Part shown: positions 4,180 to 60,860 of the stretch, piece by piece
Layout of the letters: every line of letters begins with the position of its first letter
Position numbering within the stretch: the first letter of the stretch is position 1
Assembly (NCBI GenBank): GCA_963752285.1
Contig: CAVVXN010000003.1
Coordinates: 224,001 to 288,000, forward strand
Direction of reading: 5' to 3'
DNA from: an uncultured Planctomycetota bacterium
GTDB lineage: Bacteria > Planctomycetota > PLA2 > JAEUHO01
DNA length: 64,000 nt
The notes under the pieces: generated by a model
Database searches by the model: none
Seen by the model: the letters and a program-made list of their open reading frames with translations, nothing else
What the model was told of the DNA's origin: nothing
Translations under genes and position numbers: made by a program

Positions 4180-6714
<2,535 letters not shown>

Positions 6715-6950
6715 GAAACCTCCGGGGGTCATTCTGGCCCGGATCGGGCCCCCCGTCCCCCTGGACCCGGGGTTCCGTCCCCGGGTTGGGGGCGCGGGCG
6801 AGGCCACCGACGGCGTGCCACCCGCCCGGGCCCACCTGCCACATCGGCAGGAACGCCCGGGCGACGAAACCCGTCGCCGGCCCCGGGACTTCGAACGCAC
6901 GGAGCGTGCCATCGCCCGCCCCCGCCTCGAGGGCTTCGAGGGGGCGCGTA

Positions 6951-7958
6951 TCAGGGCGGGGGCGGGAGCCCGATCCGCTCGCGTACCTCGGCGAGTGTCC
7001 GTCGCGCGATCTCCCGCGCGGCCGCCGAGGACGCCTCGAGGACGCGCCGCACGCGCGCTCGGTCCGCGCGTAGCTCCGCCCGCCGGGCGCGCAGCGGTTC
7101 CGTCGCGGCGACCACCGCGTCCGCGACGGCGTCCTTGAGGGGCGCGTAGCGCCGGTCGCCCGTCCGGAACCGGTCCGCGAAGTCGGCCGCGGCGTCGGGA
7201 GCGCCGGCGGCGCCGAGGAGCGTGAGCAGGCCCTCGACGCCGGGGCTCAGCGAGCCGTCCGCAGGGACGTCGCCGGTGTCGGTCACCGCCGAGCGGATCT
7301 TCTTCCGCTGCGCCGCCGGCTCCTCGAACACGCCGATGACGTGCCGCGGCCCGAGCGACTTGCTCATCTTCCTCGTCGGGTCGGCCGGAGAGAGGATCTT
7401 CGGCGTCGTCGTGTGGAGGGCCTCGGGCTCGGGAAAGGTCTCGCCGAACAGGCGGTTGAACGTCCGCGCCACGTCGCGTGCGAGCTCCAGGTGCTGGTCC
7501 TGGTCCTGGCCCACGGGCACGCGGGCCGCCTTGTAGATCAAGATGTCCGCGGCCTGGAGCACGGGATACGAGAAGAGGCCCGCCGAGTACGACGCGCCCG
7601 CCGCCTCGACCTGCCGGGCCTTGTCCTTGAACTGGGTCATCTTCGCGACCCAGGCGTAGGGCGTGATCGAGCCGAGGATCCACTGGAGCTCGGCGTGCTC
7701 GGGTACGAGCGACTGGACGATCAGGGCCGAGCGCTCGGGGTCGAGCCCGCAGGCCATCAGGTCGAGGCCCATGTCCCACGTCCGCTGCCGGAGGCGTGCG
7801 GGCTCGAAGGGCACGGTCAGGGCGTGGTAGTCCACGACGCCGAACAGGCACCGGTGCTCGTCCTGCAAGCGCACCCAGCCCTGGACCGCCCCGAAGTAGT
7901 TCCCGAGGTGGAGCTCGCCGCTCGGCTGGATCAGGGACAGGACCTCGAACGGCGCCAT
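6951..7958 (-). CDS. trpS: Tryptophan--tRNA ligase
   Basis: [15 protein letters not shown] (HIGH), [28 protein letters not shown]. Confidence 0.95.
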
Positions 7959-10622: not shown

Positions 10623-11354
10623 GCGCAGGCTCCGTCGTGGTGCGCGCGCTCGACGCGTCACCCCCGGAGTACACGGTCGCAATCCGGATGCCGCGCGCCG
10701 GACCCCGCGAGCCTGCCGAGGCCCGCTTGCGCGAGACGCCCATCGACCGGAGCCCCGCGCCTCGACGCGCCACACGTCGGCCGCCCTCGAGCCACCACGA
10801 TCCCGGATCGCGGCGCCGCGTTGCTACGGATTCGCAACGGGCCGGCCGGGGCGTTGGCGCGCGCGGCGGTGGGAGGGAACGCTTGCGGACGGCCCGGGAC
10901 TACGGCCCGGAGAAGACGGATACCGTCTTACCATCGACGACGCGACAACCAGGTTGCCGGACGAGCCCGAACCGAGCGCCCGGCGGGCCCCGCGGCGGGC
11001 CGGCGTCCTGACCCCCATCGCGTCCCGGGTGACGGCCGGCCCGTCGTTCCGCCGACCGGCGCGAAGGCCACGGAGCTTCATTTCCAGCCCTTCTAGGGCT
11101 GTGAGCCACCCCGGTCCGGGTCCCCGGAGCCGGACGGGGACCGGCCGGACGCGCCGGCATCGCAACCCGTCGCTCCGGGGCGGCCGGAGGCGGTTCTTCC
11201 CCGGAACGTGCACGCGTGCTCCGCCGCTTCTCCATACGCTCCGCTTATCGCCCCCATGTCCAACTCGATCGTGTGCTACCGACCGGCGCGTGGCCACAAT
11301 GCTGCGCGAAAGAGGCGGGTTGTCCGAGGGCGGTCTGCCCGAACCGGAGAGGCC

Positions 11355-14300
11355 ATGTCCAGAGCGCGATTCCCTTTCTACGTCCTCGTGGGTGCCCTGT
11401 TGGCTGCGCTGCCGGCGTGCGGTGGCAGCGGTCAAGGGCTGCGTTCACCCGACAACCCCGTGCGCGTGATGAGCACGTCCATCCCGCCGGCCCTGTCGGG
11501 CCAGAAGGTGGATTTCCCCATCGACCTGAACGGCGGGTGTGGCGGCCCCTACGTGATCAAGCTGATCCAGGGGAAGCTTCCGCCGGGCGTCGTGTTCGAC
11601 AACGCGACGCACAGCATGAACGGCACGCTCCTGATGGACGGGACGTACTCGTTCACGTTGCAGATCGACGACACGGGTTGTAACCCGTTCTCGTCCACGC
11701 AGGCGAAGTTCACGTGGAACGTCGGGGTCGGGGACGTGGTCGTCGTCGACGTCCTGCAGGACGGCAACAGCGCGCTCCTCCCCGCGGGCGCCGAGGCGTT
11801 CAACCCGGACTACCCCGCGCTCCCGACGACCGTCTACAACCAGAATACCTCCCTCCAGTTCGTGGTCGCCGGCGGCGTCGGCCCGTACAAGATGAAGCTG
11901 TACGACGACCCCGCGCTCCAGGACGGGAACCTCCCGCTCGGCGTCGTGGTGGCCTCGGGCTCCCCGAATCTCGTCGGGTCGCCCGTAGAGGTGGGCCCCG
12001 GTGGCGGCGCGTTCCTGCTCTCGTTCGAACTGACGGACGCGGTGGGGACGAAGGGGTACTTCCACGCGTACTGGAAGATCGACACCCCGCCGATCACGAT
12101 CGCGACGACCAGCCTCGGGAACGGCGTCTGTGGCCAGACGTACAGCGAGACGTTCTTCCTCGTGGACGGCGTTCCGCCCTTCACGCACGACCTCGTGGAG
12201 CAGGGGCTCCCGCTCGGCTACACGTCCGACCAGAACCCGAATCCGCAGGATCCCGGCGCGGACGTCCTCTACAACCAGGCCGGGCCGCCGACGGTCAACC
12301 CGTCACAGGCGCTGAACAAGATCGACGCCTACGTCTATCCCACGCCCAGCGCGATCGGCCCGAACTACGCCGTCTCGAACCAGGGCGCCCCGCCCGAGGG
12401 CATCTACATGGTCGAGGACACGGGAGCCCTGACCGGGATCCCGCGCCGGCGCGGCACGTTCTCGATCAACTACCACGTCCAGTCCTCGCTGGTCCCGAAC
12501 TCGTTCGGGCAGCACGCGTGGCGAACCTACACCTTCCAGATCAGCCCGTCGGGCTCGCTGGCGCAGGACCCGTCATACACGGTGGACGGCGTGTTCCGTC
12601 CGATCGCGCCGTACAGCCGGATCGGGGACTTCGAGCTCGGCCAGGTCTACAACCCGGACGGCGGCGTCGCGGGCCTGCAGCTCAAGGCCACCGGCGGCTG
12701 CCCGCAGGACGGCAAGTCCGACCACCCGCACCTCTCGCAGGTGGTCGCGGACCCGGCGGTCGGCGAGGTGCTCGGCGCGTACACGTGGGCGGTCGACTGG
12801 GACCCGCTGTCCCTGGGCACGCCGCCGATCCCGCACGTCGAGCTGCTTCCGTCCGGCGTGTTCCGCGTGGTGCCCGGTGAGCAGAGCCAGCTCGCCACGC
12901 AGGCCTTCCAGACGTTGACGTTCACGGTGAACGACTACGCGTTGCCGACCTCGTTCGCGAGCACGAACTCACAGTACGTACGCACCTCGGTCGGACCGGA
13001 TGTCCTCGTCATCACCGAGTCCACGACCTCGTTCGCCTTCGGCAACACCACCTCGTCGATCACCACCGGGTTCAACGACCCGAACATGAAGGTGAAGGTG
13101 ATGCTCCCGTACAGCTCGGGGGCGGTCGTCCGTTCGCTCGACGACGCAAAGGACATGGCGGGAACGGGCGCGAGCCAGCACACGATCCCGAGCACGGCGG
13201 GCAGCGGCAAGACGCTGAAGGACCTGCTGGAGGGCGTGGACCTCCTGCGCACCTCGGTGAACGCGACCGGATGGTGGGACGACACCTGGTCCCTCAACCC
13301 GAAGGCGGGCATCGCGGCCGCCCACGGCGACATGAACCAGGGGTACGGCTACTACGGTCTCACGTACTCCTACGAGTACTGGTCCACCACCAGCTCGTAC
13401 ACGTACAGCTACGGGGCGAACCCCGAGAGCACGTGCGTGCAGATCCCGGTGTGCACGACGCCGGGCGTGACCGAGGACCGGGACGCCGGCGTCTACACGA
13501 GCGGCGGGAAGCTCTACCTCTTCGACTCGAGCAGCTACATCGGCGCGTTCATCGTGCGTCCGGAGTCGAAGGTCTACGTGCCGATCGCGTTCAACAAGTC
13601 CTCGACGGGCTACTACTCGTTCGGGGACGTCTGGGTGAACGCGTACTCGAACACGCAGACCGTCATGTCGATCTGGAAGGTCCCGCAGATCACGATCAGC
13701 CCCGACGGGCGCTTCGCGGCGCTCAAGCTCGGCACGAGCACGACGCAGAACCTCTCCCAGGGAGGGGAGCTGGCGTCGAGCAGCCGGCTCGTGATCTTCT
13801 CGCTCACGGGCGAGCGGATCGCGGCGTGGGGCAACAAGACCTGGATCGTGGTCCAGTCGGGGGCCAACGGCGGCTACTCCCACACCTCGAGCACGGGGGA
13901 GCGGTTGATCGCGGCGAGCCTCGCGCTCTCCAACGACAACCTCTACTACGTGTGCGGCTGCAACGACTTCACCTCGTCCGAGTGGTACTCGTGGCGCTAC
14001 GAGTGGGTGTACCGCTACGGGATCCAGAGCGGCGGAAGCTCGGGGGCCCTCCTGGCCTGCGGTGACTCGGAGTGGACCAACACGAATGGGAACCCCCTCC
14101 AGCTGCCGATGCAGCGCTACTACGAGGCGGGGTACGGCTACAACTACGGCACGTACGGGTACAACTACTGCGACTCCACGATCTACTACGGCGGATACGC
14201 GGGCCAGGAGTGGGGCAACCCGCCGATGCCGTTCCGCATGAGCGCGGACGGCCATACCGTCGCGATCGTCGCGGGCCGTTCCACCACGTCGAGCGCCGAC

Positions 14301-15929
14301 TCGACGACCATGTACATGAGCCACGTGTGGGTAGACGACGCCACGGGCGTCCACCGGCTCTCGTCGCGGGTGCGGCACCAGCCGTGGGGCGGCGGGCGCG
14401 GGTCCGCCCTCTCCGGCGGCTCGCTCAGCAGCTACACGTACCAGTGGGGCATGCAGTGCGGCCCGAGCACGCAGCTCGAGGTCGCGGACGACGGCTCGAG
14501 GGTGGCCGTGGTGGTCAACCGCTACAGCGGCACGGTCTACTACTCCAGCTCGTACGCCTACGAGCTCGGGTACGACCGCCAGGACGTGATCGCCTTCGAG
14601 CCCGCGGTGAGCGGGACCTGGGCGGGCGGCGCGGTCGAGCGGCAGGTCACGGGCTCGGAGTCCGCGACGACCCCGATCTTCTCGACCAACCTCAACTGGA
14701 AGTTCGGCGCGCTCGTCTTCACGAAGGACGGCAACGGCCTGGTCTTCTGGGGCGGGGCCGCGGCGTACTACCCGAACAACTTCAACACCTCCTCGTACCA
14801 GCCCTACGTGGGCGCGCCGGGCCTCACGGGCAGCCTGTACCTGTACAGCTTCCCGAACAGCACGGTGACGCACATCCTGGACTACGACGAGGGCGGGAAC
14901 TCGGACGACATCGGGAAGGTGTACCCGACGCAGTCCACCCAGGTGAACCCGTCGTTCACGGACTACTCGTTCCCGGGCGCCCGGAACATCGGGACGGTGA
15001 AGCCGCTCGGCGGGTTCATGTCGCCGAACCGGAACTTCTACTACATCTCTACGGCCCACGCGCTGAGCTCGACGCTGCAGGACGCCACGCAGCTGATCGG
15101 GATCAACGTGCGGAGCCTCGACTCGACGCAGGCGATCAACGGGCACTCGGACGGCCGCGCATTCGCGCTCGGCGGCACGAGCTGGCCCACGCACCGGAGC
15201 TGGATCCCGACCTACGGGTACAGCTCTTCCTACTGCTACTGCGGGTACTACGGGATCTTCTACCAGTACATCGCGCCCGGATGCGAGTACGGCACGATGC
15301 GCGTGATGACCCGCGGCGGCAAGGTGTTCTACGGCTCGCACTACCAGATCTTCGGGCCGACACCGACATACTCCTCGTACACGTACGCCGGACCGATCGA
15401 GACGACGTACCACGGCTGCGACGCGGCCTTCGCGGGACAGGTGGGGTACTTCGACGCGAACGTCGGCGGCACGCCGGTGATGCTCACCACGCTGCCCGAG
15501 ACGATCATCATGAACAACTACTCGTCCACCACCTACCGGACGATGAAGTACCTGGAGGTCTCGAGCGACGAGACGGCAGTGGCGTTCGTCTACGCGCCGT
15601 TCGCGTCCACGAGCTACAGCTACCCGGTCAACTGCGCAGCCGAGCGAGTCGGCTGGATCGGGAACCTCATCACGAACGCCACGACGGGCGCCGTGGTCAG
15701 CAAGTCGGTGGTGGCCGACCTGCAGGGCGCAGCCGGGCGCATCTCGTCGTCGATCGCGCACGACTCCACCGGGACGAGCGTGTTCTACGGCGACGCGGTC
15801 TCGGGGGCCGACGAGAAGGACAAGTACATCTACCAGACGGCCGTCAGCTCGGCGGGCGCCGGGACGCCGAAGAAGTACTCGTTCTCCGGTGACCCGAAGC
15901 GCTACAACATCCTGAACGCCGGCCGCTGA
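11355..15929 (+). CDS. Giant surface lipoprotein, copy 1 (1524 aa): N-terminal putative Ig (He_PIG/cadherin-like) repeats plus Tyr/Ser/Gly-rich probable beta-propeller region
   Basis: GGAGAGG RBS; lipobox LPAC; repeated GGxxPY/F...LPxG(V/I)...GxP motifs (GGCGGPY, GGVGPY, DGVPPF); ISPDGRFA, MSADGHTVA, VADDGSRVA, FTKDGNGL, MSPNRNF, VSSDETAVA blade-like motifs. Confidence 0.85.
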   Translation: MSRARFPFYVLVGALLAALPACGGSGQGLRSPDNPVRVMSTSIPPALSGQKVDFPIDLNGGCGGPYVIKLIQGKLPPGVVFDNATHSMNGTLLMDGTYSFTLQIDDTGCNPFSSTQAKFTWNVGVGDVVVVDVLQDGNSALLPAGAEAFNPDYPALPTTVYNQNTSLQFVVAGGVGPYKMKLYDDPALQDGNLPLGVVVASGSPNLVGSPVEVGPGGGAFLLSFELTDAVGTKGYFHAYWKIDTPPITIATTSLGNGVCGQTYSETFFLVDGVPPFTHDLVEQGLPLGYTSDQNPNPQDPGADVLYNQAGPPTVNPSQALNKIDAYVYPTPSAIGPNYAVSNQGAPPEGIYMVEDTGALTGIPRRRGTFSINYHVQSSLVPNSFGQHAWRTYTFQISPSGSLAQDPSYTVDGVFRPIAPYSRIGDFELGQVYNPDGGVAGLQLKATGGCPQDGKSDHPHLSQVVADPAVGEVLGAYTWAVDWDPLSLGTPPIPHVELLPSGVFRVVPGEQSQLATQAFQTLTFTVNDYALPTSFASTNSQYVRTSVGPDVLVITESTTSFAFGNTTSSITTGFNDPNMKVKVMLPYSSGAVVRSLDDAKDMAGTGASQHTIPSTAGSGKTLKDLLEGVDLLRTSVNATGWWDDTWSLNPKAGIAAAHGDMNQGYGYYGLTYSYEYWSTTSSYTYSYGANPESTCVQIPVCTTPGVTEDRDAGVYTSGGKLYLFDSSSYIGAFIVRPESKVYVPIAFNKSSTGYYSFGDVWVNAYSNTQTVMSIWKVPQITISPDGRFAALKLGTSTTQNLSQGGELASSSRLVIFSLTGERIAAWGNKTWIVVQSGANGGYSHTSSTGERLIAASLALSNDNLYYVCGCNDFTSSEWYSWRYEWVYRYGIQSGGSSGALLACGDSEWTNTNGNPLQLPMQRYYEAGYGYNYGTYGYNYCDSTIYYGGYAGQEWGNPPMPFRMSADGHTVAIVAGRSTTSSADSTTMYMSHVWVDDATGVHRLSSRVRHQPWGGGRGSALSGGSLSSYTYQWGMQCGPSTQLEVADDGSRVAVVVNRYSGTVYYSSSYAYELGYDRQDVIAFEPAVSGTWAGGAVERQVTGSESATTPIFSTNLNWKFGALVFTKDGNGLVFWGGAAAYYPNNFNTSSYQPYVGAPGLTGSLYLYSFPNSTVTHILDYDEGGNSDDIGKVYPTQSTQVNPSFTDYSFPGARNIGTVKPLGGFMSPNRNFYYISTAHALSSTLQDATQLIGINVRSLDSTQAINGHSDGRAFALGGTSWPTHRSWIPTYGYSSSYCYCGYYGIFYQYIAPGCEYGTMRVMTRGGKVFYGSHYQIFGPTPTYSSYTYAGPIETTYHGCDAAFAGQVGYFDANVGGTPVMLTTLPETIIMNNYSSTTYRTMKYLEVSSDETAVAFVYAPFASTSYSYPVNCAAERVGWIGNLITNATTGAVVSKSVVADLQGAAGRISSSIAHDSTGTSVFYGDAVSGADEKDKYIYQTAVSSAGAGTPKKYSFSGDPKRYNILNAGR

Positions 15930-16143: not shown

Positions 16144-16243
16144 GCCATCGTCTTTCGGTGTCCGGCGGGGATGGGATTTCGTAGAATACGCGCCGAAAGA
16201 GGCGGTTCTTCTCTTGGGCAGCATTCCCCGGATCGGAGAGGCC

Positions 16244-19200
16244 ATGTCGAGAGCGCGAATCCACGCGTACATCCTGATCGGCGTGCTGCTGGCAGTGCTC
16301 CCTGCCTGCGGCGGCGGACAGGGACTCCGGATGCCGAGCGACGCCGTGCGCGTCACGAGCACGTCGATCCCGGCGGCGCTCTCCGGACAGCCGCTGGCGT
16401 TCGAGATCCCGCTCGAAGGGGGCTGCGGCGGTCCCTACGTCTTCCATCAGCTGAGTGGGAGGCTGCCCAAGGGCGTGGCCCTCGACAGCGCCACGCACAG
16501 CATCCGCGGGACGCCGCTCGAGGACGGGACCTTCACCGTCAAGATCCAGATCGACGACACGGGCTGCAACCCGTTCTCTTCCACGTCCGCCACGTTCAGG
16601 ATCGACGTGGGTGTGGGGGACGTGGTCGTCTGCGACGTGCTCCGCGACGGCAACTCGGCGCTGATCCCCGTCGGGGGTACGAGCTTCAACCCGGACTACC
16701 CCGCGCTCCCGACGACCGTCTACAACGAGTCCACCTCCCTCCAGCTCGTGGTCGCCGGTGGCGTGGGCCCGTACAAGATGAAGCTCTACGACGATCCCGC
16801 GCTCCCGGACGGGAACCTCCCGCTCGGCGTCGTGGTGGCGTCGGGCTCGCCGAACCTCGTCGGGTCGCCGGCCGAGGTGGGGCCGGGCGGCGGGCCGTTC
16901 CTCCTCTCGTTCGAGCTGACGGACGCCGTCGGGACGAAGGGGTACTTCCACACGTACTGGAAGATCGACACCCCGCCGATCACGATCGCGACGGCCACCA
17001 TCGGGAACGGCGTCTGCGGCCAGACGTACAGCGAGACGTTCTTCCTCGTGGACGGCGTGCCGCCCTTCACGCACAACCTCGTGGAGCAGGGGCTCCCGGT
17101 CGGCTACACGTCCGACCAGAATCCGAACCCGCAGGACCCAGGCGCGGACGTCCTCTACAACCCGGCCGGGCCGCCGACGGTCAACCCGCCGCAGGCGCTG
17201 AACAAGATCGACGCCTACGTCTATCCCACGCCCGACGCCGCCGGTCCGAACTACGACGTCTCGAACCAGGGCGCCCCGCCCGAGGGCATCTACATGGTCG
17301 AGGACACGGGAGCCCTGACCGGGATCCCGCGCCGGCGCGGCACGTTCTCGATCAACTACCACGTCCACTCCTCGCTGGTCCCGAACTCGTTCGGGCAGCA
17401 CGCGTGGCACACGTACACCTTCACGATCAGCCCGTCGGGCTCGATGGCGCAGGACCCGTCGTACACGGTGGACGGCGTGTTCCGTCCGACCGCGCCGTAC
17501 AGCCGGATCGGCGACTTCGAGCTCGGCCAGGTGTACAACCCGGACGGCGGCGTCGCGGGCCTGCAGCTCAAGGCCACCGGCGGCTGCCCGCAGGACGGTA
17601 AGTCCGACCACCCGCACCTCTCGCAGGTGGTCGCGGACCCGGCGGTCGGCGAGGTGCTCGGCGCGTACACGTGGGCGGTAGACTGGGACCCGCTGTCCCT
17701 GGGCACGCCGCCGATCCCGCACGTCGAGCTGCTCCCGTCCGGCGTGTTCCGCGTGGTGCCCGGTGAGCAGAGCCAGCTCGCCACCCAGGGCTTCCAGACG
17801 TTGTCGTTCACGGTGAACGACTACGCGTTGCCGACGTCACTCGCGAGCACGAGCACCCAGCGGGTCCGTACGTCCGTCGGTCCCGACGTGTTGATCATCA
17901 CCGAGTCCACGACCTCGTTCACGGGGGCGAACACGACGTCGTCGGACACCAGCCGGCTGAACGACCCGAACATGAAGGTGAAGGTGATGCTCCCGTACAG
18001 CTCGGGGGCAGTCGTCCGTTCGCTGGACGACGCGAAGGACATGGCGGGAACGGGCGCGAGCCAGCACACGATCCCGAGCACGGCGGGCAGCGGTAAGACG
18101 CTGAAGGACCTGCTGGAGGGCGTGGACCTCCTGCGCACCTCCGTGAACGCGACGGGATGGTGGGACGACACGTGGTCCCTGAACCCCAAGGGCGGTCAGG
18201 CGGCCGCGCACGGCGACGCCAACCAGGGGTACGGCTACTACGGCCTCACCTACGCCTACGAGTACTGGTCCACCACCAGCACCTACTCATACAGCTACGG
18301 GGCGAGCCCCGAGACCACCTGCGTGCAGATCCCGGTGTGCACGACGCCGGGCGTGACCGAGGACCGGGACGCCGGCGTCTACACGAGCGGCGGGAAGCTC
18401 TACCTCTTCGACTCGAGCAGCTACATCGGCGCGTTCATCGTGCGTCCGGAGTCGAAGGTCTACGTGCCGATCGCGTTCAACAAGTCCTCGACGGGCTACT
18501 ACTCGTTCGGGGACGTCTGGGTGAACGCGTACTCGAGCACCCAGACGACGATGTCGGCCTGGAAGATCCCGCAGATGACGATCAGCCCCGACGGGCGCTT
18601 CGCGGCGCTCAAGCTCGGCACGAGCACGACGCAGAACCTCTCCCAGGGAGGGGAGCTGGCGTCGAGCAGCCGGCTCGTGATCTTCTCGCTCACGGGCGAG
18701 CGGATCCCGGCCTGGGGCAACAAGACCTGGATCGTGGTCCAGTCGGGGGCCAACGGCGGCTACTCCCACACCTCGAGCACGGGGGAGCGGTTGATCGCGG
18801 CGAGCCTCGCGCTCTCCAACGACAACCTCTACTACGTGTGCGGCTGCAACGACTTCACCTCGTCCGAGTGGTACTCGTGGCGCTACGAGTGGGTGTACCG
18901 CTACGGGATCCAGAGCGGCGGAAGCTCGGGGGCCCTCCTGGCCTGCGGCGACTCGCAGTGGACCAACACGTCCGGGAGCCCCATGCAGCTCCCGATGCAG
19001 CGCTACTACCAGGCGGGGTACGGCTACAACTACGGCACGTACGGGTACAACTACTCCGACTCCACGGTCTACTACGGCGGATACGCCGGGGTCGAGACGG
19101 GCAGCCAGCCGATGCCGTTCCGCATGAGCGCGGACGGCCACACGGTCGCGATCGTCGCGGGTCCGTCCACGTCGTCGAGCGGCGACTCTACGACGATGTA

Positions 19201-20818
19201 CATGAGTCACGTGTGGGTCGATGACGCCACGGGGGTCCACCGGCTCTCGTCGAGGACACGGCACATGCCGTGGGGTGGGGCCCGGGGCTCGACCCTCTCG
19301 AGCGGGTCGCTCAGCAGCTACACGTACCAGTGGGGCGTGCAGTGCGGACCGAGCACGCAGCTCGAGATCTCCGACGACGGCTCGAGGGTGGCCGCGGTGG
19401 TCAACCGCTACAGCGGAACCGTCTACTACTACACCTCGTACGCCTACGAGCTCGGCTACGACCGGCAGGACGTGATCGCCTTCGAGCCCGCGGTGAGCGG
19501 GACCTGGGCGGGCGGCGCGGTCGAGCGGCAGGTCACGGGCTCGGAGTCCGCGACGACCCCGATCTTCTCGACCAACCTCAACTGGAGGTTCGGCGCGCTC
19601 GTCTTCTCGAAGGACGGCGCCGGCCTGTTCTTCTGGGGAGGCGCTGCGAGCTACTACCCCAACAACTTCAACACGAGCTCCTATCAGCCCTACACCGGAG
19701 CCGTGGGCCTGGCGGGCAGCCTGTACGTGTACAGCTTCTCGGCTGGCACGGTGACCCACATCCTGGACTACGACGAGGGCGGGAACTCGGACGACATCGG
19801 GAAGGTGTACCCGACGCAGTCCACCCAGGTGAACCCCTCGTTCACGGACTACTCGTTCCCGGGCGCCCGGAACATCGGGACGGTGAAGCCGATCGGCGGG
19901 TTCATGTCGCCGAACCGGAACTTCTACTACATCTCGACCGCCCAGGGGTTGAGCGCGTCGCTGTCGGACTCCACGCAGCTCGTGGCCATCAACGTCCGCA
20001 GCATCGACGCCACGCAGACGATCAACGGCCACTCGGACGGTCGGGCGTTCGCGCTCGGCGGCACGAGCTGGCCCACGCACCGGAGCTGGGTCCCGACCTA
20101 CGGGTCCAGCTCGTCGTACATGTACGTCGCGTACTACGGCATCTACTACCAGTACCTCGCGCCCGGTGGACTGTTCGGAACGATGCGGGTCATGACCCCG
20201 GGGGGCAAGGTCTTCTACGGGTCGCACTACATGATCTTCGGGCCGTCCACCGGGGCCTCCGCGAGCTACTCGTACGGCGGTCCGATCGAGTCGACGTACC
20301 ACGGCTGCGACGCGGCGTTCGCGGGACAGGTGGGGTACTTCGACGCGAACGTCGGCGGCACGCCGGTGATGCTCACCTCGCTGCCCGAGACGATCATCAT
20401 GAACAACTACTCGTCCACCACCTACCGGACGATGAAGTACCTCGAGGTCTCGAGCGACGAGACGGCGGTGGCGTTCGTCTACGCGCCGTTCGCGTCCACG
20501 AGCTACAGCTACCCGGTCAACTGCGCCGCCGAGCGAGTCGGCTGGGTCGGGAACCTCATCACGAACGCCACGACGGGCGCCGTGGTCAGCAAGTCGGTGG
20601 TGGCCGACCTGCAGGGCGCCGCCGGACGCATCTCGTCGTCGATCCAGCACGACTCCACCGGGACGAGCGTGTTCTACGGGGACGCGGTCTCGGGGACCGA
20701 CGAGAAGGACAAGTACATCTACCAGACGGCCGTCAGCTCGGCGGGCGCCGGGACGCCGAAGAAGTACTCGTTCTCCGGTGACCCGAAGCGCTACAACATC
20801 CTGAACGCCGGCCGCTGA
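16244..20818 (+). CDS. Giant surface lipoprotein, copy 2 (1524 aa), paralogue of 11355..15929
   Basis: Same RBS context GGAGAGGCCATGTC, lipobox LPAC, same length and domain motifs, long identical DNA tracts. Confidence 0.85.
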   Translation: MSRARIHAYILIGVLLAVLPACGGGQGLRMPSDAVRVTSTSIPAALSGQPLAFEIPLEGGCGGPYVFHQLSGRLPKGVALDSATHSIRGTPLEDGTFTVKIQIDDTGCNPFSSTSATFRIDVGVGDVVVCDVLRDGNSALIPVGGTSFNPDYPALPTTVYNESTSLQLVVAGGVGPYKMKLYDDPALPDGNLPLGVVVASGSPNLVGSPAEVGPGGGPFLLSFELTDAVGTKGYFHTYWKIDTPPITIATATIGNGVCGQTYSETFFLVDGVPPFTHNLVEQGLPVGYTSDQNPNPQDPGADVLYNPAGPPTVNPPQALNKIDAYVYPTPDAAGPNYDVSNQGAPPEGIYMVEDTGALTGIPRRRGTFSINYHVHSSLVPNSFGQHAWHTYTFTISPSGSMAQDPSYTVDGVFRPTAPYSRIGDFELGQVYNPDGGVAGLQLKATGGCPQDGKSDHPHLSQVVADPAVGEVLGAYTWAVDWDPLSLGTPPIPHVELLPSGVFRVVPGEQSQLATQGFQTLSFTVNDYALPTSLASTSTQRVRTSVGPDVLIITESTTSFTGANTTSSDTSRLNDPNMKVKVMLPYSSGAVVRSLDDAKDMAGTGASQHTIPSTAGSGKTLKDLLEGVDLLRTSVNATGWWDDTWSLNPKGGQAAAHGDANQGYGYYGLTYAYEYWSTTSTYSYSYGASPETTCVQIPVCTTPGVTEDRDAGVYTSGGKLYLFDSSSYIGAFIVRPESKVYVPIAFNKSSTGYYSFGDVWVNAYSSTQTTMSAWKIPQMTISPDGRFAALKLGTSTTQNLSQGGELASSSRLVIFSLTGERIPAWGNKTWIVVQSGANGGYSHTSSTGERLIAASLALSNDNLYYVCGCNDFTSSEWYSWRYEWVYRYGIQSGGSSGALLACGDSQWTNTSGSPMQLPMQRYYQAGYGYNYGTYGYNYSDSTVYYGGYAGVETGSQPMPFRMSADGHTVAIVAGPSTSSSGDSTTMYMSHVWVDDATGVHRLSSRTRHMPWGGARGSTLSSGSLSSYTYQWGVQCGPSTQLEISDDGSRVAAVVNRYSGTVYYYTSYAYELGYDRQDVIAFEPAVSGTWAGGAVERQVTGSESATTPIFSTNLNWRFGALVFSKDGAGLFFWGGAASYYPNNFNTSSYQPYTGAVGLAGSLYVYSFSAGTVTHILDYDEGGNSDDIGKVYPTQSTQVNPSFTDYSFPGARNIGTVKPIGGFMSPNRNFYYISTAQGLSASLSDSTQLVAINVRSIDATQTINGHSDGRAFALGGTSWPTHRSWVPTYGSSSSYMYVAYYGIYYQYLAPGGLFGTMRVMTPGGKVFYGSHYMIFGPSTGASASYSYGGPIESTYHGCDAAFAGQVGYFDANVGGTPVMLTSLPETIIMNNYSSTTYRTMKYLEVSSDETAVAFVYAPFASTSYSYPVNCAAERVGWVGNLITNATTGAVVSKSVVADLQGAAGRISSSIQHDSTGTSVFYGDAVSGTDEKDKYIYQTAVSSAGAGTPKKYSFSGDPKRYNILNAGR

Positions 20819-20840
20819 CGCGGTCGGTCGGGGACCCTCG

Positions 20841-20876
20841 CGCCGCCCGCGGGCTTCGGCCCGCGGACGGCGTCTT
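20841..20876 (+). terminator. Degenerate copy of the intrinsic terminator
   Basis: Same hairpin with one stem mismatch (A20867) and U-tract reduced to TCTT. Confidence 0.55.
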
Positions 20877-20991
20877 GGCCGGCGCCGACGGGACATTCGG
20901 CCCCCCGAGGCGCCCGGGTGCCGTTGCCCGTCGTCGCCGCACCCGATAGAGTCCCCCCCGGCCCGACCTGCCGGGCCCGGAGGAGACTCGA

Positions 20992-21510
20992 ATGAGACGT
21001 ACGACGACCCTTCTGTCGGCGCTGCTGCTCGTCGGCGGCTGCCTCGCCCTCGGTCGGTCCGAGGACGCCGACGCGTTGCCGGCGGTGGCCCGCGCGCGGC
21101 CCCACGCCCTGTTCCAGGTGGCGATCGACGGCGTCGCCGTCGGCGGCTTCAAGAGCGTGGACGGCCTCTCGGCCGAGGTGGAGACCGTGGAGTACCGGGA
21201 CGGGGGCGACAACCTCGTTCGCAAGCTGCCCGGCCGCCTCGCGTTCGGGAGCGTCACGCTCGTGCGCGACCTGACCAAGGACACCACGTTCTTCGACTGG
21301 ATCCACGAGGCCGCGTCGACGAGCGGCCCCGACCGCAAGGACGTGACGGTCACCGTGTACGACCCGAAGAGCGGGGACACCGTCCGGACCTTCAACCTCG
21401 TGGACTGCTTCCCCACGCACCTGGCCGTCAAAGCCCTCGACGCGAAGGGCGGGGGCGAGGTCGCGATCGAGGAGATCGTCCTGGCGGTCGAGAACGTGAG
21501 TCTCGACTGA
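20992..21510 (+). CDS. Phage tail tube protein (T4 gp19 / eCIS Afp1-5 family) with N-terminal signal peptide
   Basis: FQVAIDG..GGFKSVDGLSAEVETVEYRDGGDN..RKLPGR...VTLVRDLT...FFDW...RKDVTVTVYD...FNLVDCFP...LDA...EVAIEEIVLAVE; leader MRRTTT-LLSALLLVGGCLALG-RSEDADA; GGAGGAG RBS. Confidence 0.88.
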   Translation: MRRTTTLLSALLLVGGCLALGRSEDADALPAVARARPHALFQVAIDGVAVGGFKSVDGLSAEVETVEYRDGGDNLVRKLPGRLAFGSVTLVRDLTKDTTFFDWIHEAASTSGPDRKDVTVTVYDPKSGDTVRTFNLVDCFPTHLAVKALDAKGGGEVAIEEIVLAVENVSLD

Positions 21511-21794
21511 GAGCCTATGGAGGAATCGAGTCCGGGGCCTCGGCCGGATGCGGCGCCGCGATGCGGCGTTGCTCGTCGTCAGCGACCCACGGCGGGGTCG
21601 CCTCCGGCTCGCACCATGCCTTGCGCCCCCGCGCTCGGCCCCGGGGCCCCGGCCCACGCATTCACACGCGGAGCGGCGCGGCGGCGGGCGCTGCGTGCGT
21701 GCCGCCCTGGAAGCGGCACGCACGACCCCCCCGACGGGCGTAGGAAAGGCCCGGGCCCGGTGCGGCGGTGTGCCGGCGCGCCGGAGGACGTGCC

Positions 21795-22814
21795 ATGCAG
21801 ATCGGCATGATCGGCCTCGGCCGGATGGGTGCGGACATGACCCGCCGCCTCCTCGCCGGTGGTCACGAGTGCGTCGTCTTCGACCTCGATGAGGGCCGCG
21901 TGCGCGCGCTCGAACGAGCGGGCGCCACCGGCGCCAGCTCCGTCGAAGCGCTCGTCGGTCGGCTCGCCCGCCCGCGCACGGTGTGGCTGATGGTGCCCGC
22001 GGGCGCCGTGGACCGCGCGTTGGCCGATCTGGCGCCTCGGCTCGAAGCCGACGACGTCGTGGTGGACGGAGGCAACACGAACCCGCAGGACGACCGACGC
22101 CGTGCGGCGCGGCTCGAGGAGCGCGGGATCCATCACGTGGACTGCGGGACGAGCGGCGGAGTCTGGGGCCGGGAAGGTGGCTACTGCCTGATGGTCGGGG
22201 GCGACGACGCGATCGTCTCCCGGCTGGACCCTCTGTTCCGGACGCTCGCGCCGGGACGGGACGCGGCGCCGCCCACCGCCGCTCGCGCCGCCCGGTCCGG
22301 GACGGCCGAGGACGGGTATCTCCACTGCGGCCCGCACGGCGCGGGGCACTTCGTCAAGATGGTGCACAACGGCATCGAGTACGGCGTGATGGCCGCGTAC
22401 GCCGAGGGGCTCGCGCTCCTCGGGCACGCGGCCGCGGGCCTCGAGACCCGGGAGACCGACGCGGAGACGACGCCGCTTCGGGACCCCGGCGCCTACGCCT
22501 ACCGCTTCGAGCTGGCCGACGTGGCCGAGGTGTGGCGACGGGGCAGCGTGATCCGGTCGTGGCTGCTCGACCTCGCCGCGAGCGCCCTCGCGAGGGACCC
22601 TGGCCTCGAGGCCTTCGCGGGGCGCGTCTCGGACTCCGGGGAGGGGCGCTGGGCCCTCCAGGCCGCGATCGACGTCGGGGCGCCCGCGCCGGTGCTCGCG
22701 ACCGCGCTCTTCGCCCGCTTCGCCTCGCGCGGCGAGGCGGACTACGCCGGTCGGCTCCTCTCGGCGATGCGCCACGAGTTCGGAGGGCACCAGGAGAAGG
22801 GGCCGGGACGATGA
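21795..22814 (+). CDS. gnd: 6-phosphogluconate dehydrogenase (decarboxylating), short YqeC type
   Basis: GMIGLGRMG, VDGGN, DCGTSGG, GAGHFVKMVHNGIEYG, DSGEGRW, MRHEFGGH. Confidence 0.95.
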   Translation: MQIGMIGLGRMGADMTRRLLAGGHECVVFDLDEGRVRALERAGATGASSVEALVGRLARPRTVWLMVPAGAVDRALADLAPRLEADDVVVDGGNTNPQDDRRRAARLEERGIHHVDCGTSGGVWGREGGYCLMVGGDDAIVSRLDPLFRTLAPGRDAAPPTAARAARSGTAEDGYLHCGPHGAGHFVKMVHNGIEYGVMAAYAEGLALLGHAAAGLETRETDAETTPLRDPGAYAYRFELADVAEVWRRGSVIRSWLLDLAASALARDPGLEAFAGRVSDSGEGRWALQAAIDVGAPAPVLATALFARFASRGEADYAGRLLSAMRHEFGGHQEKGPGR

Positions 22815-25947: not shown

Positions 25948-26994
25948 TCAGGAGAGGCTCGCGCGGACGAACGCGGCGCGCCGGGCCTCTCGCTCCTCGC
26001 CGTCGAGGGTCCGGCCCTCCATCTTCTGGAGGTGCGCCGGCTGGGTCAGGACGAGGAGCTCGTTCACGCGGTGCAGGTCCACGTCCTCGAGGAGGCCCAT
26101 CACCACGCCCAGGCGCACGCTCGAGAGGTGGCTCATCACCTCGTCGCTCGTGAGCATGCGGGCGGCGCGGAGCGTCGCGAGGCTCCGGTGGACCTTGTCC
26201 TCCAGTCGGCGCCGGCCGCGGCTGGCGAGCTCCTGCCGGCACAGGTCCTCGTACTCGAGGATGCGCGGCAGCATGTTCCGGAGGCCGAGGAGGATCTCCT
26301 CCTCCGTCCGGCCGAGCGTGACCTGGTTCGAGATCTGGTACAGGTCGCCCAACGCCATCGTGCCCTCGCCGTAGAACCCGCGGACGGTGAGGCCCGTTCG
26401 CGAGCAGGCGTGGAAGACCTTCTCGACCTGCTTCATGTGGACGAGCGCCGGCAGGTGCAGCATCACGCTCGCGCGCAGGCCCGTCCCGACGTTCGTCGGG
26501 CACGCGGTCAGGTATCCGTGCTCGGTCGTCGCCGCGTACTCGACCACGTTCTCGAGCGTCCGATCGACGTCCACGGCCGTGTGCCACGCGTCCTCGAGCG
26601 AGAGCGACGAACGGATCGCCTGGATGCGCAGGTGGTCCTCTTCGTTGACCATCACGCTCACGACCTCGTCGGACCCGAACGCGACGCCGCGCGGTCCCTT
26701 GCCCGACTCCAGCTCGCGGCTGATCAGGTGGCGCTCGAGCAGGAACTTCGCGTCGAGTCGTTCGGCGACCTCGAGGTCCACGTAGTGCTGGCGGGCGCCG
26801 AGGGCGAGCGCGCTCAGGTGCTCGTGCATCCGTTCGAGGATCTCGCGCTTCTGATCTTCGCCCGCGCGCGTGGCGAAGGGGTACCCCGCGAGGTTGCGGG
26901 CCAGGCGTACGCGAGACGAGATCACGGTCTCGGCGCGCGGTCCCTCGCCCCGCAGCCACTCTCCGCATCGGCGATCGAGGTCAACGAGTTCCAC
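25948..26994 (-). CDS. mcsB: Protein arginine kinase
   Basis: ISSRVRLARNL, LLERHLIS, VMVNEEDHLRIQ, GYLTACPTNVGTGLRASVMLHLPAL, YQISNQVTLG. Confidence 0.95.
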   Translation of the reverse strand: MELVDLDRRCGEWLRGEGPRAETVISSRVRLARNLAGYPFATRAGEDQKREILERMHEHLSALALGARQHYVDLEVAERLDAKFLLERHLISRELESGKGPRGVAFGSDEVVSVMVNEEDHLRIQAIRSSLSLEDAWHTAVDVDRTLENVVEYAATTEHGYLTACPTNVGTGLRASVMLHLPALVHMKQVEKVFHACSRTGLTVRGFYGEGTMALGDLYQISNQVTLGRTEEEILLGLRNMLPRILEYEDLCRQELASRGRRRLEDKVHRSLATLRAARMLTSDEVMSHLSSVRLGVVMGLLEDVDLHRVNELLVLTQPAHLQKMEGRTLDGEEREARRAAFVRASLS

Positions 26995-27529
26995 CGCTCG
27001 GCTCGTCTCCGTGGGCCGGGCCGGACGCCGCGGCCTGCGGGCCCTGCTCCAGCTCGCGGATGGCGTCGCGGATGCGCGCCGCGTCTTCATAGCTCTCGGT
27101 GCGAACCGCGTCCTGCAGCTCACGCCGGAGCGCGAGCAGTCGATCGGCCCACTCCGTCTCCACGGTGACGCGCCCGCGCGGGAGCCTCCCGGTGTGGCGA
27201 TGCGCCCCGTGGATCTTGTCGAGGAGGGGGTTCAGCCGCTCCGCGAAGACTTCGTAGTCTCGCGGGCAGCCGAACCTCCCCTTGGTGCGGAACTCCTCGA
27301 ACGCGATGCCGCAGTGCGGACAGCGGAGCGTGGAACCCCCGCCCGCCTGCCGGATGGCACTCGACATCAGGTTGGCGAGGCCGGAGGGCACGGGCGCGCC
27401 GCTCGCGATTCCCTGCTCGTTCGCGCAGGCCTCGCAGATGTGCAGCGTCCGCTTCTTGTCGCTCTTGATCTCGGTGAAGTGGATGGTCGCCGGATACTTC
27501 CCGCAGCACTGGCACAGCGTCGGGCTCAT
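26981..27529 (-). CDS. mcsA: McsA activator (CxxC motifs plus UVR domain)
   Basis: CQCC..ATIHF, ICEAC, CPHCG..F..FR..GRFGCPRDY, HTGRLP, EDAARIRD. Confidence 0.93.
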   Translation of the reverse strand: MSPTLCQCCGKYPATIHFTEIKSDKKRTLHICEACANEQGIASGAPVPSGLANLMSSAIRQAGGGSTLRCPHCGIAFEEFRTKGRFGCPRDYEVFAERLNPLLDKIHGAHRHTGRLPRGRVTVETEWADRLLALRRELQDAVRTESYEDAARIRDAIRELEQGPQAAASGPAHGDEPSGGTR

Positions 27530-60175: not shown

Positions 60176-60860
60176 TCACCCCGCGCGGAGGGGGCGCCGT
60201 CGGCGCCGCAGGAGGGCCGCGGCGCCGAGGCCCAGGAGGAGGATCGTCGGGGGCTCGGGGACCGGAGCCGTCGCGCCCGTGAAGGAGAGGGTCAGCGCGC
60301 CCGCCCCGGTCCGCGTGCCGTTGTACGCATTCGTCGCGAGGTAGTCGTCGGAGCGGAGGCGGTCGTCCCGGCCCGCGACCAGGGAGCCCGTGAGGAGGCT
60401 CGCGGCGGGCGCCGGGTTCCGCGCGCGAAGAGGACCGACCCGCCGGCGACTCCGCTCCGTCGCGCCGTGACCGGCGCGTGCGCGAGAGAGCGGCGGTTGT
60501 CGTCCGCCCGCGGACGCGGAGCGCCGGGCCGGCTCGCGCGCCATCGCTTCTCGGCACACCGTCTCGATCTCGATCGAGCCCGACCGCGCCCGGCTCCGCG
60601 GCCGCAGCGGGTCCCGGTGGAGGAACGCGTCGCGAAGCGCCTGGATGGGATCACCCTGGAACGGAGGCCGGCCCGTGAGGATCTCGTAGAGGAGCACGCC
60701 GAGCCCGCACACGTCGCTTCGTCCGTCGATGGAGTCGGCGTCCCCTTGGACCTGCTCCGGCGACAGGTAGGCGGGCGTGCCGAGCAGCGGTCCCTCGCGT
60801 GTCGGTGTCGTGGACTGCGCGGCCCGTCGGGCGAGGCCGAAGTCGACGAGGAGCGCCGCG
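60176..60860 (-). pseudogene. Chimeric remnant: Ser/Thr kinase C-lobe fragment in frame with a PEP-CTERM tail
   Basis: LLVDFGLAR...LLGTPAYLSPEQ...DGRSDV.GLGVLLYEILTGRPPF..., ending VPEPPTILLLGLGAAALLRRRRR; no N-lobe, no HRD loop, no start codon upstream of DFG. Confidence 0.7.

Follow-up and report, generated by a model that had tools for sequence, protein, structure and literature searches.

A stretch of 64,000 nucleotides (nt) from an uncultured Planctomycetota bacterium (contig CAVVXN010000003.1 of assembly GCA_963752285.1), referred to in what follows as the window, carries on its forward strand a gene whose 172-residue product, P0001, is very probably an exported, stand-alone homologue of the tube proteins of contractile injection systems (CISs). 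Tube proteins of phages, of type VI secretion systems (T6SSs) and of extracellular contractile injection systems (eCISs) are, in general terms, treated as cytoplasmic parts of contractile machines. P0001, in contrast, has a putative Sec-type export leader in front of a complete tube domain and no CIS genes as neighbours. Going by sequence comparisons, it is one of a large class of tube-fold proteins that are exported, stand alone and are scattered over the phylogeny, and both the export and the independence from a sheath are well supported. The fuller statement that we favour, in which P0001 is exported and also assembles into rings or short tubes within the envelope, is given roughly even chances when taken as a whole.

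The tube domain and its gene

The features on which the argument is built are the following:

20992..21510, + strand: coding sequence of P0001, the probably exported tube-protein homologue, 172 amino acids (aa) plus stop (from the list of open reading frames (ORFs), translation, codon-position GC and Pfam)
20992..21075, + strand: putative leader, residues 1-28, with n-region MRR and h-region TTTLLSALLLVGGCLALG (from our own signal-peptide heuristic)
21109..21507, + strand: tube-fold domain, residues 40-172 (from Pfam, AlphaFold2 (AF2) and Foldseek)
20979..20985, + strand: Shine-Dalgarno-like GGAGGAG, 6-8 nt before the ATG (from direct sequence reading)
21076..21078, + strand: in-frame TTG (Leu29), a candidate alternative start that would give a canonical leaderless protein of 144 aa (from direct sequence reading)

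Residues 40-169 of P0001 match the Pfam family Phage_T4_gp19 (PF06841) with an E-value of 6.4e-32 and 110.6 bits (cut-off 28.2), along profile positions 4-133 of 134, which bears out the sequence-only reading of the window, where a gp19 tube pattern had been recognised over residues ~40-172. The NCBIfam model TIGR02241 is also matched above its cut-off (97.2 bits against 62.4). In contrast, two NCBIfam equivalogs, CIS5_fam (tube adaptor; 83.6 bits, cut-off 260) and CIS1_fam (inner tube; 44.4 bits, cut-off 220), remain far under theirs, which places P0001 within the tube superfamily, but not as an orthologue of Afp1/Pvc1 or of Afp5/Pvc5. This means that, of the label gp19/Afp1-5 originally assigned to it, the gp19 part can be kept and the Afp1-5 part was too specific.

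The predicted structure tells the same family history. The AF2 model, built on 66 relatives, reaches a mean predicted local distance difference test (pLDDT) score of 84.7, with ten-residue block means that exceed 90 for most of residues 41-172 (81 at 151-160) and values of 51-61 for residues 1-39, which leaves the leader outside the folded domain. It has the fold of a tube subunit, that is, a beta-sandwich, one helix and a long hairpin, and the top ranks of a Foldseek search against the PDB are occupied by the tube proteins of PVC, Afp, AlgoCIS, Anabaena CIS and Streptomyces CIS (E 1e-11 to 9e-9; template modelling (TM) scores of 0.72-0.77, on target), the superposition on the solved eCIS tubes Pvc1 and Afp1 having a Foldseek TM of 0.73-0.77. 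Furthermore, a profile made of 66 leader-bearing members recovers the solved CIS tubes (All3324 at 1.1e-37, AlgoCIS at 3.7e-36, Pvc1 at 1.8e-29 and Afp1 at 3.7e-28).

The gene is considered to be real and to be translated from the ATG at 20992. The GC content of its three codon positions (0.70/0.45/0.96) matches that of the confident genes of the window, whose overall G+C is 73.6%, and the strong ribosome-binding site attributed to it is indeed present, with GGAGGAG at 20979-20985, 6-8 nt ahead of the ATG. The promoter of its own that had also been attributed to it fared worse: the -10-like TAGAGT (20947-20952) exists and is identical to TATAAT at only four of six positions, and the claim is left unsupported, since a promoter scan of 20500-22000 returned 0 sites. 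A terminator scan around the gene gave 0 sites as well.

A putative export leader shared by many homologues

The beginning of P0001 has, by our own heuristic, all the features of a Sec signal for signal peptidase I (SPase I): a positive n-region (MRR), an h-region consisting of an 18-residue uncharged run with a mean hydropathy of 2.5, and small-x-small motifs at which SPase I could cut, after Gly21 (A-L-G) or after Ala28 (A-D-A). The signal-peptide-like leader of ~28 residues, proposed in the sequence-only reading from the same MRR, hydrophobic stretch and A-D-A, thus passes. The rule applied asks for an uncharged run that is 8 or more residues long, has a mean hydropathy of at least 1.9, starts by residue 25 and is preceded by a basic residue. 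Its background was established on the 2438 start-codon positions of the window that are followed by 45 open codons, 165 of which (6.8%) pass the loose form of the rule and 19 (0.8%) reach the strength of P0001. A lipoprotein signal is a second candidate, with a lipobox-like VGGC (Cys17) that lies within the uncharged run and fits the loose pattern [LVI][ASTVIG][GAS]C, although it is followed by four hydrophobic or uncharged residues. Given that the Pfam model LPAM_1 stays below its threshold (E 0.28; 12.2 bits against 20), the SPase I and the SPase II routes are both kept.

Is this leader a peculiarity of a single sequence? That it might be a one-off artefact had been named beforehand as the outcome that would speak against export, and the opposite was found. 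An exhaustive HMMER search of 1.84 billion cluster representatives resulted in 3365 matches at E <=1e-3, and leaders were counted in the best 150. Single-domain proteins of up to 205 aa make up 126 of these 150 representatives (P0001 included), and they divide into 67 in which the domain starts late, behind a signal-like leader, 44 without a leader and 15 unclear cases; the best 25 of the 3365 matches are nearly all leader-bearing. The leaders are also consistent in their architecture, with a net positive n-region in 66 of the 67, a small-x-small site between the h-region and the domain likewise in 66, and a median uncharged run of 21 residues. The stretch that precedes the domain has a median length of 38 residues in the leader-bearing proteins against 12.5 in the leaderless ones, a difference that points to the addition of one signal peptide (~25 residues) to a complete tube subunit. 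Other export routes seem to be represented too, since a lipobox-like cysteine is found in seven of the 67 and two further proteins (P0109 and P0193) begin with RR motifs resembling those of the twin-arginine translocation (Tat) route. Plasmids contribute little to this picture: a tblastn search of a plasmid collection gave 91 records, none of which covers >=80% of the query, so none takes in the leader, and among the 25 matches listed the annotation, where given, reads 'phage tail protein'.

The remaining 24 of the best 150 representatives are longer or have more than one domain. A scan of 26 proteins (P0131 was left out owing to its size) revealed secreted forms in which a signal peptide is followed by DUF5667, gp19 and Kazal domains (P0077 and P0196) or by FG-GAP and gp19 (P0164), together with a form that combines Ig-like, CIS_tube, gp19 and DUF4214 domains (P0074) and with secreted tandem proteins made of two tube domains (P0049, P0075, P0116 and P0177). 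At the extreme of size, P0131 is a giant protein of 5355 aa with five matched tube-domain stretches, and an ORF of 4766 aa with three tube-motif matches is present at L078, which shares a contig with L079 in a UBP7 metagenome-assembled genome (MAG). To judge from their sequences, both giant ORFs use the tube fold as a repeated module.

The phylogenetic distribution of the leader was addressed with a maximum-likelihood tree of the 126 single-domain sequences, calculated with the leaders trimmed, which is poorly resolved (7 of 123 inner branches starred). The leader label is clustered on this tree, requiring 24 changes against a shuffled mean of 42.1, with none of 500 shuffles as low. Nevertheless, the leader-bearing proteins do not form one clade, because the starred branches force at least three changes of the label. 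The idea that leader-bearing homologues might constitute a single clade devoid of sheath neighbours has therefore survived in its second half, the seven loci inspected being all sheath-free, and not in its first. P0001 itself groups with two other leader-bearing proteins, with a support of 86 in the Shimodaira-Hasegawa-like approximate likelihood ratio test (SH-aLRT). The closest pair across the two labels is formed by the leader-bearing protein of L015 and the tube of L042, which belongs to a full eCIS cluster (69% identity over 146 residues), and the leader-bearing proteins of L103, L119 and L041 share 62-66% identity with further leaderless tubes, from loci outside the context set. The simplest reading of these comparisons is that ordinary CIS tube genes would have gained a signal peptide repeatedly, on more than one occasion.

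Genomic surroundings and the missing injection-system genes

The P0001 gene lies 173 nt downstream of two tandem lipoprotein genes and upstream of the genes for 6-phosphogluconate and glucose-6-phosphate dehydrogenase. No sheath, baseplate, spike, terminator or tape-measure family was found among the 57 window ORFs scanned and, when 20 proteins from Myxococcota eCIS clusters were compared with the window by tblastn, only the four tube proteins among them gave matches, all of them at 21031-21498, within the P0001 gene. The sequence-only reading had gone one step further in stating that the 64 kb contained no AAA gene either. It was right about sheath, baseplate, spike and tape-measure genes, but an AAA+ gene does exist at 4183-6117 (-), which encodes a ClpB/ClpC-type chaperone (AAA_2, ClpB_D2-small and UVR) and not a CIS ATPase.

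The same question was extended to other genomes by means of a degenerate-motif DNA scan with one genome per species, which yielded 122 loci (80 with flanks), most of them corresponding to a conserved leaderless tube gene of Myxococcota. Genes with a leader, as judged by eye, are found at 11 of the 122, among others in Chloroflexota, Planctomycetota, Omnitrophota, Akkermansiaceae, Acidobacteriota and Endomicrobiales. Seven of these have usable flanks, and no sheath, Pvc16, baseplate or CIS_tube gene is found near the tube gene at any of the seven (95 ORFs), whose neighbours vary from locus to locus; at L076, two leader-bearing tube genes are adjacent. As a control, seven leaderless loci with full 20-kb flanks (99 ORFs) were picked by hand, not at random: four are part of complete eCIS clusters (Pvc16_N, two sheath genes, two gp19 genes and CIS_tube with LysM) and three are not. 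In short, leader-bearing tube genes are solitary in every case seen, and leaderless ones sometimes are.

Several observations on individual loci accompany these counts. The Myxococcota eCIS clusters L001, L006, L042 and L070 share one gene order, namely Pvc16_N, short sheath, tube, a small ORF, long sheath, second tube, an ORF of 1250-1800 aa without a Pfam match and CIS_tube; LysM is joined to CIS_tube in three of the four, and CHAT-domain proteins are encoded near two. Around the leaderless tube genes of L009, L010 and L023, the 10 kb to each side are free of CIS genes (at L009 and L023 the ORF filter dropped the tube ORF itself), and that of L010, of 143 aa, is flanked by one gene of a class II tRNA-synthetase family and one of an isocitrate/isopropylmalate dehydrogenase family. 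These three loci indicate that solitary spare copies of cytoplasmic tube genes exist too. At L015, in a Chloroflexota MAG, the leader-bearing tube gene is immediately preceded, on the same strand, by a gene at 6253-7080 (-) whose product has collagen triple-helix repeats and a hydrophobic segment at its N-terminus.

Back in the window, the intergenic space upstream of P0001 contains one further element:

20846..20865, + strand: GC hairpin CCGCGGGC-UUCG-GCCCGCGG with a perfect 8-bp stem, between the upstream lipoprotein gene (stop at 20818) and P0001

The fold of 20815-20900 (86 nt) has a free energy of -50.7 kcal/mol (z -1.78), with 13 of 200 shuffles equally stable, and no T-run follows the hairpin at 20846-20865, which might possibly, on weak grounds, mark the end of a transcript. 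The two lipoprotein genes before it, 11208-15929 (+) and 16214-20818 (+), are tandem paralogues coding for giant proteins of ~1530 aa that are 88% identical. Their true starts are likely at internal methionines (MSRAR...), each carries a signal of the lipoprotein type (LPAC lipobox), and Tyr, Ser, Thr and Gly abound in the C-terminal two thirds of both; their sole Pfam match is one He_PIG immunoglobulin (Ig) domain, and Protein Atlas leads (all <0.9) go toward proteins with Ig domains and PD40 beta-propellers. They were considered as partners of P0001 and rejected for lack of a conserved association, since a tblastn search of P0047 against all 122 loci gave no match. Elsewhere in the window, an ATP:guanido phosphotransferase gene (McsB/arginine-kinase-like; 25951-27123, -) lies ~20 kb from the ClpB/ClpC-type gene, and positions ~30000-63300 are occupied by a large exopolysaccharide-type region. 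This region contains three Acetyltransf_6 (FemAB-like) genes, Poly_export/SLBB (Wza-like), several GT1, GT2 and GT4 glycosyltransferases, a Wzz-like protein, Bac_transf, a Polysacc_synt flippase, an epimerase, an extracytoplasmic function (ECF) sigma factor, a beta-helix/fn3 protein, a PEP-CTERM protein (60179-60712, -) and a MatE transporter.

Possible roles and comparison with known systems

In the mechanism that we propose, a Sec-type leader would have been placed on the N-terminus of a tube homologue with the Pvc1/Afp1/gp19 fold, and it would be cut by signal peptidase I unless Cys17 were lipidated, as in a lipoprotein. The mature tube domain of ~144 residues would thereby be located outside the cytoplasm, in the periplasm or the cell envelope, where it would meet no sheath, baseplate or spike. 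It would keep the self-association of tube subunits and could form hexameric rings like those of Hcp, the tube protein of T6SSs, or short stacks of them, which might act as an envelope scaffold or binding ring and not as part of an injection device. The identity of 62-69% over ~146 aa between some leader-bearing proteins and leaderless tubes suggests that the assembly surfaces are likely retained in the former. That the mature protein forms rings is put forward tentatively, by analogy, at somewhat less than even chances. A bolder version, in which the exported subunits polymerise as nanotubes or stacked rings, periplasmic or on the surface, without sheath, baseplate or tape-measure, is doubtful; if true, it would represent a new envelope appendage or conduit that phage tails have given rise to repeatedly and that many little-studied phyla possess (Planctomycetota, Verrucomicrobiota, Acidobacteriota, Chloroflexota, Omnitrophota and Endomicrobiales).

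There are several points that weigh against this proposal. The classification of the leaders depends on our own rules for hydrophobicity, charge and small-x-small sites. An in-frame TTG at codon 29, with an upstream GAGGA, would turn P0001 into a normal leaderless tube protein of 144 aa, and the start cannot be fixed by close comparison, given that the closest homologue is only ~45% identical. The seven leader-bearing loci with usable flanks are few, and at L041 and L049 the gene is near a contig end, with one flank unseen. Being an 'orphan' is in itself nothing special, as three of the seven leaderless controls are also away from CIS clusters, and the absence of CIS genes around P0001 refers to the 64-kb window, so a CIS could be encoded elsewhere in the genome. 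As for the rings, the AF2 model of the natural tandem form P0075 has a pLDDT of 81.1 and a predicted TM score (pTM) of 0.77, and its single domains match CIS tubes. However, the alignment of its two domains to T5-type tandem tubes is poor (TM 0.27; root-mean-square deviation (rmsd) 24 Å), which leaves a ring-like packing unsupported.

Some of these points nourish other explanations. An exported tube fold might not polymerise at all, being reused instead as a monomeric or small-oligomer extracellular module for binding or adhesion, comparable to Ig or lectin domains, with the single-domain proteins as its minimal version. This is rather unlikely for P0001, although the multidomain fusions make it nearly as likely as the rings: long secreted proteins combine the domain with Kazal, FG-GAP, Ig-like and DUF4214 domains, it is repeated in the giant ORFs P0131 and L078, in which it is difficult to imagine a closed hexameric tube, the neighbourhoods are unrelated between loci and the model of the tandem form comes without ring packing. 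Nonetheless, the single-domain members still comprise the whole tube subunit with its N-terminal segment, some of them are 62-69% identical to leaderless tubes (the nearest of these tubes coming from a genuine eCIS), and no ligand or binding site is known. A quite different explanation would do away with the export. If translation began at the TTG at 21076, which has GAGGA (21061-21065) 10 nt ahead of it and yields exactly the canonical length, or at a GTG three codons further on (Val32; 141 aa), the product would be a cytoplasmic tube of 141-144 aa, a spare copy for a CIS located elsewhere. Leaderless tube genes off CIS clusters do exist (L009, L010 and L023) and, in a word-indexed search, 44 of the 45 non-self matches are leaderless proteins of 141-148 aa, the remaining one being of 179 aa with a hydrophobic N-terminus. 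This explanation is, however, improbable. The ribosome-binding site at the ATG is the better one (GGAGGAG), codons 1-28 keep the coding pattern with G or C at 24 of 28 third positions, and the leader has n-, h- and c-regions of a strength reached by 0.8% of the open starts. The homologues also agree, comparable leaders being carried by 67 of the 126 nearest single-domain representatives, and for these reasons the downstream start is judged unlikely.

Two other explanations were weighed. P0001 could be a decoy, an exported mimic of a tube that blocks or caps incoming phage tails or the injection tubes of rivals. The location fits the place where foreign tail tubes cross the envelope, and the repeated gain of leaders together with a patchy spread across phyla resembles the behaviour of conflict genes, both being circumstantial arguments. 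But no defence genes were seen in the window or in the seven leader-bearing neighbourhoods (the PADLOC library was not scanned) and no precedent was found in the literature, all of which makes for a very low probability. Lower still is that of a membrane-tethered part of a real CIS, with the N-terminal segment as an uncleaved anchor and with sheath and baseplate encoded elsewhere. The uncharged run (18 residues in P0001; class median 21) would permit a membrane helix in some members. Against it, the MRR before the segment and the acidic residues after it place the domain outside the cytoplasm, away from a cytoplasmic sheath, a small-x-small site follows the h-region in 66 of 67 members and CIS genes are found at none of the seven loci. 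The export of a sheath-independent tube homologue, with rings or short stacks as its possible form, is thus the reading that we retain.

If widespread partnerless tube homologues do leave the cytoplasm by Sec, lipoprotein or Tat routes, a part of the phage tail would have been domesticated repeatedly for a task in the envelope. This has practical consequences as well, because annotation pipelines name such genes 'phage tail protein', and surveys of CISs and prophages based on PF06841 would miscount them. Full-text literature searches found no description of tube proteins bearing a signal peptide, and a group of exported tube proteins spanning many bacterial phyla is apparently undescribed. In the passages available from one study, a protein with a Phage_T4_gp19 domain was the most abundant in one extracellular-protein cluster of sludge granules (PMC12019908); this is compatible with the exported class, those passages making no statement on a signal peptide. 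In the parts available from another, the Phage_T4_gp19 domain is used solely as an eCIS core marker (PMC8213781).

Among the known systems, the eCIS tubes are those to which P0001 is most alike: Pvc1 of the Photorhabdus PVC, Afp1 of the Serratia Afp, the AlgoCIS tube and Anabaena All3324 belong to the same Pfam family and have the same fold (Foldseek E 1e-11 to 1e-9, TM 0.73-0.77, 25-30% identity), and the mature P0001, of ~144 aa, would have their length. Unlike P0001, with its putative export leader and no CIS neighbours, these tubes lack a signal peptide, are put together in the cytoplasm and have their genes beside those for sheath, baseplate and spike. P0001 accordingly departs from a functional inner tube in that the partner genes are absent from the window and a leader, as judged by the heuristic, is present. 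T4 gp19, the namesake of the Pfam family, is more distant from P0001 than the eCIS tubes (structures 5w5f and 5iv5 are recovered by Foldseek at E 9e-6 and 2e-5), and it is a virion component built on a baseplate in the cytoplasm. The model of P0075 can be aligned along both of its domains with T5 tail-tube and tail-tip proteins, of the pb6-type tandem tubes of siphophages, with the poor fit already mentioned, so a likeness in domain arrangement is not established; moreover, these tandem tubes are cytoplasmic parts of the virion, whereas the tandem relatives of P0001 are secreted. Finally, Hcp (TssD) has a related tube fold that Foldseek recovers weakly from P0001 (E 1e-5 to 1e-4), the Hcp family being absent from the Pfam matches of P0001 at E up to 1, and it lacks a Sec signal and exits through the T6SS itself, in contrast to the Sec-type leader of P0001. 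Hcp nevertheless exists as free hexameric rings, which are also carriers for small proteins, and these free rings provide a working model for what an exported P0001 might form.

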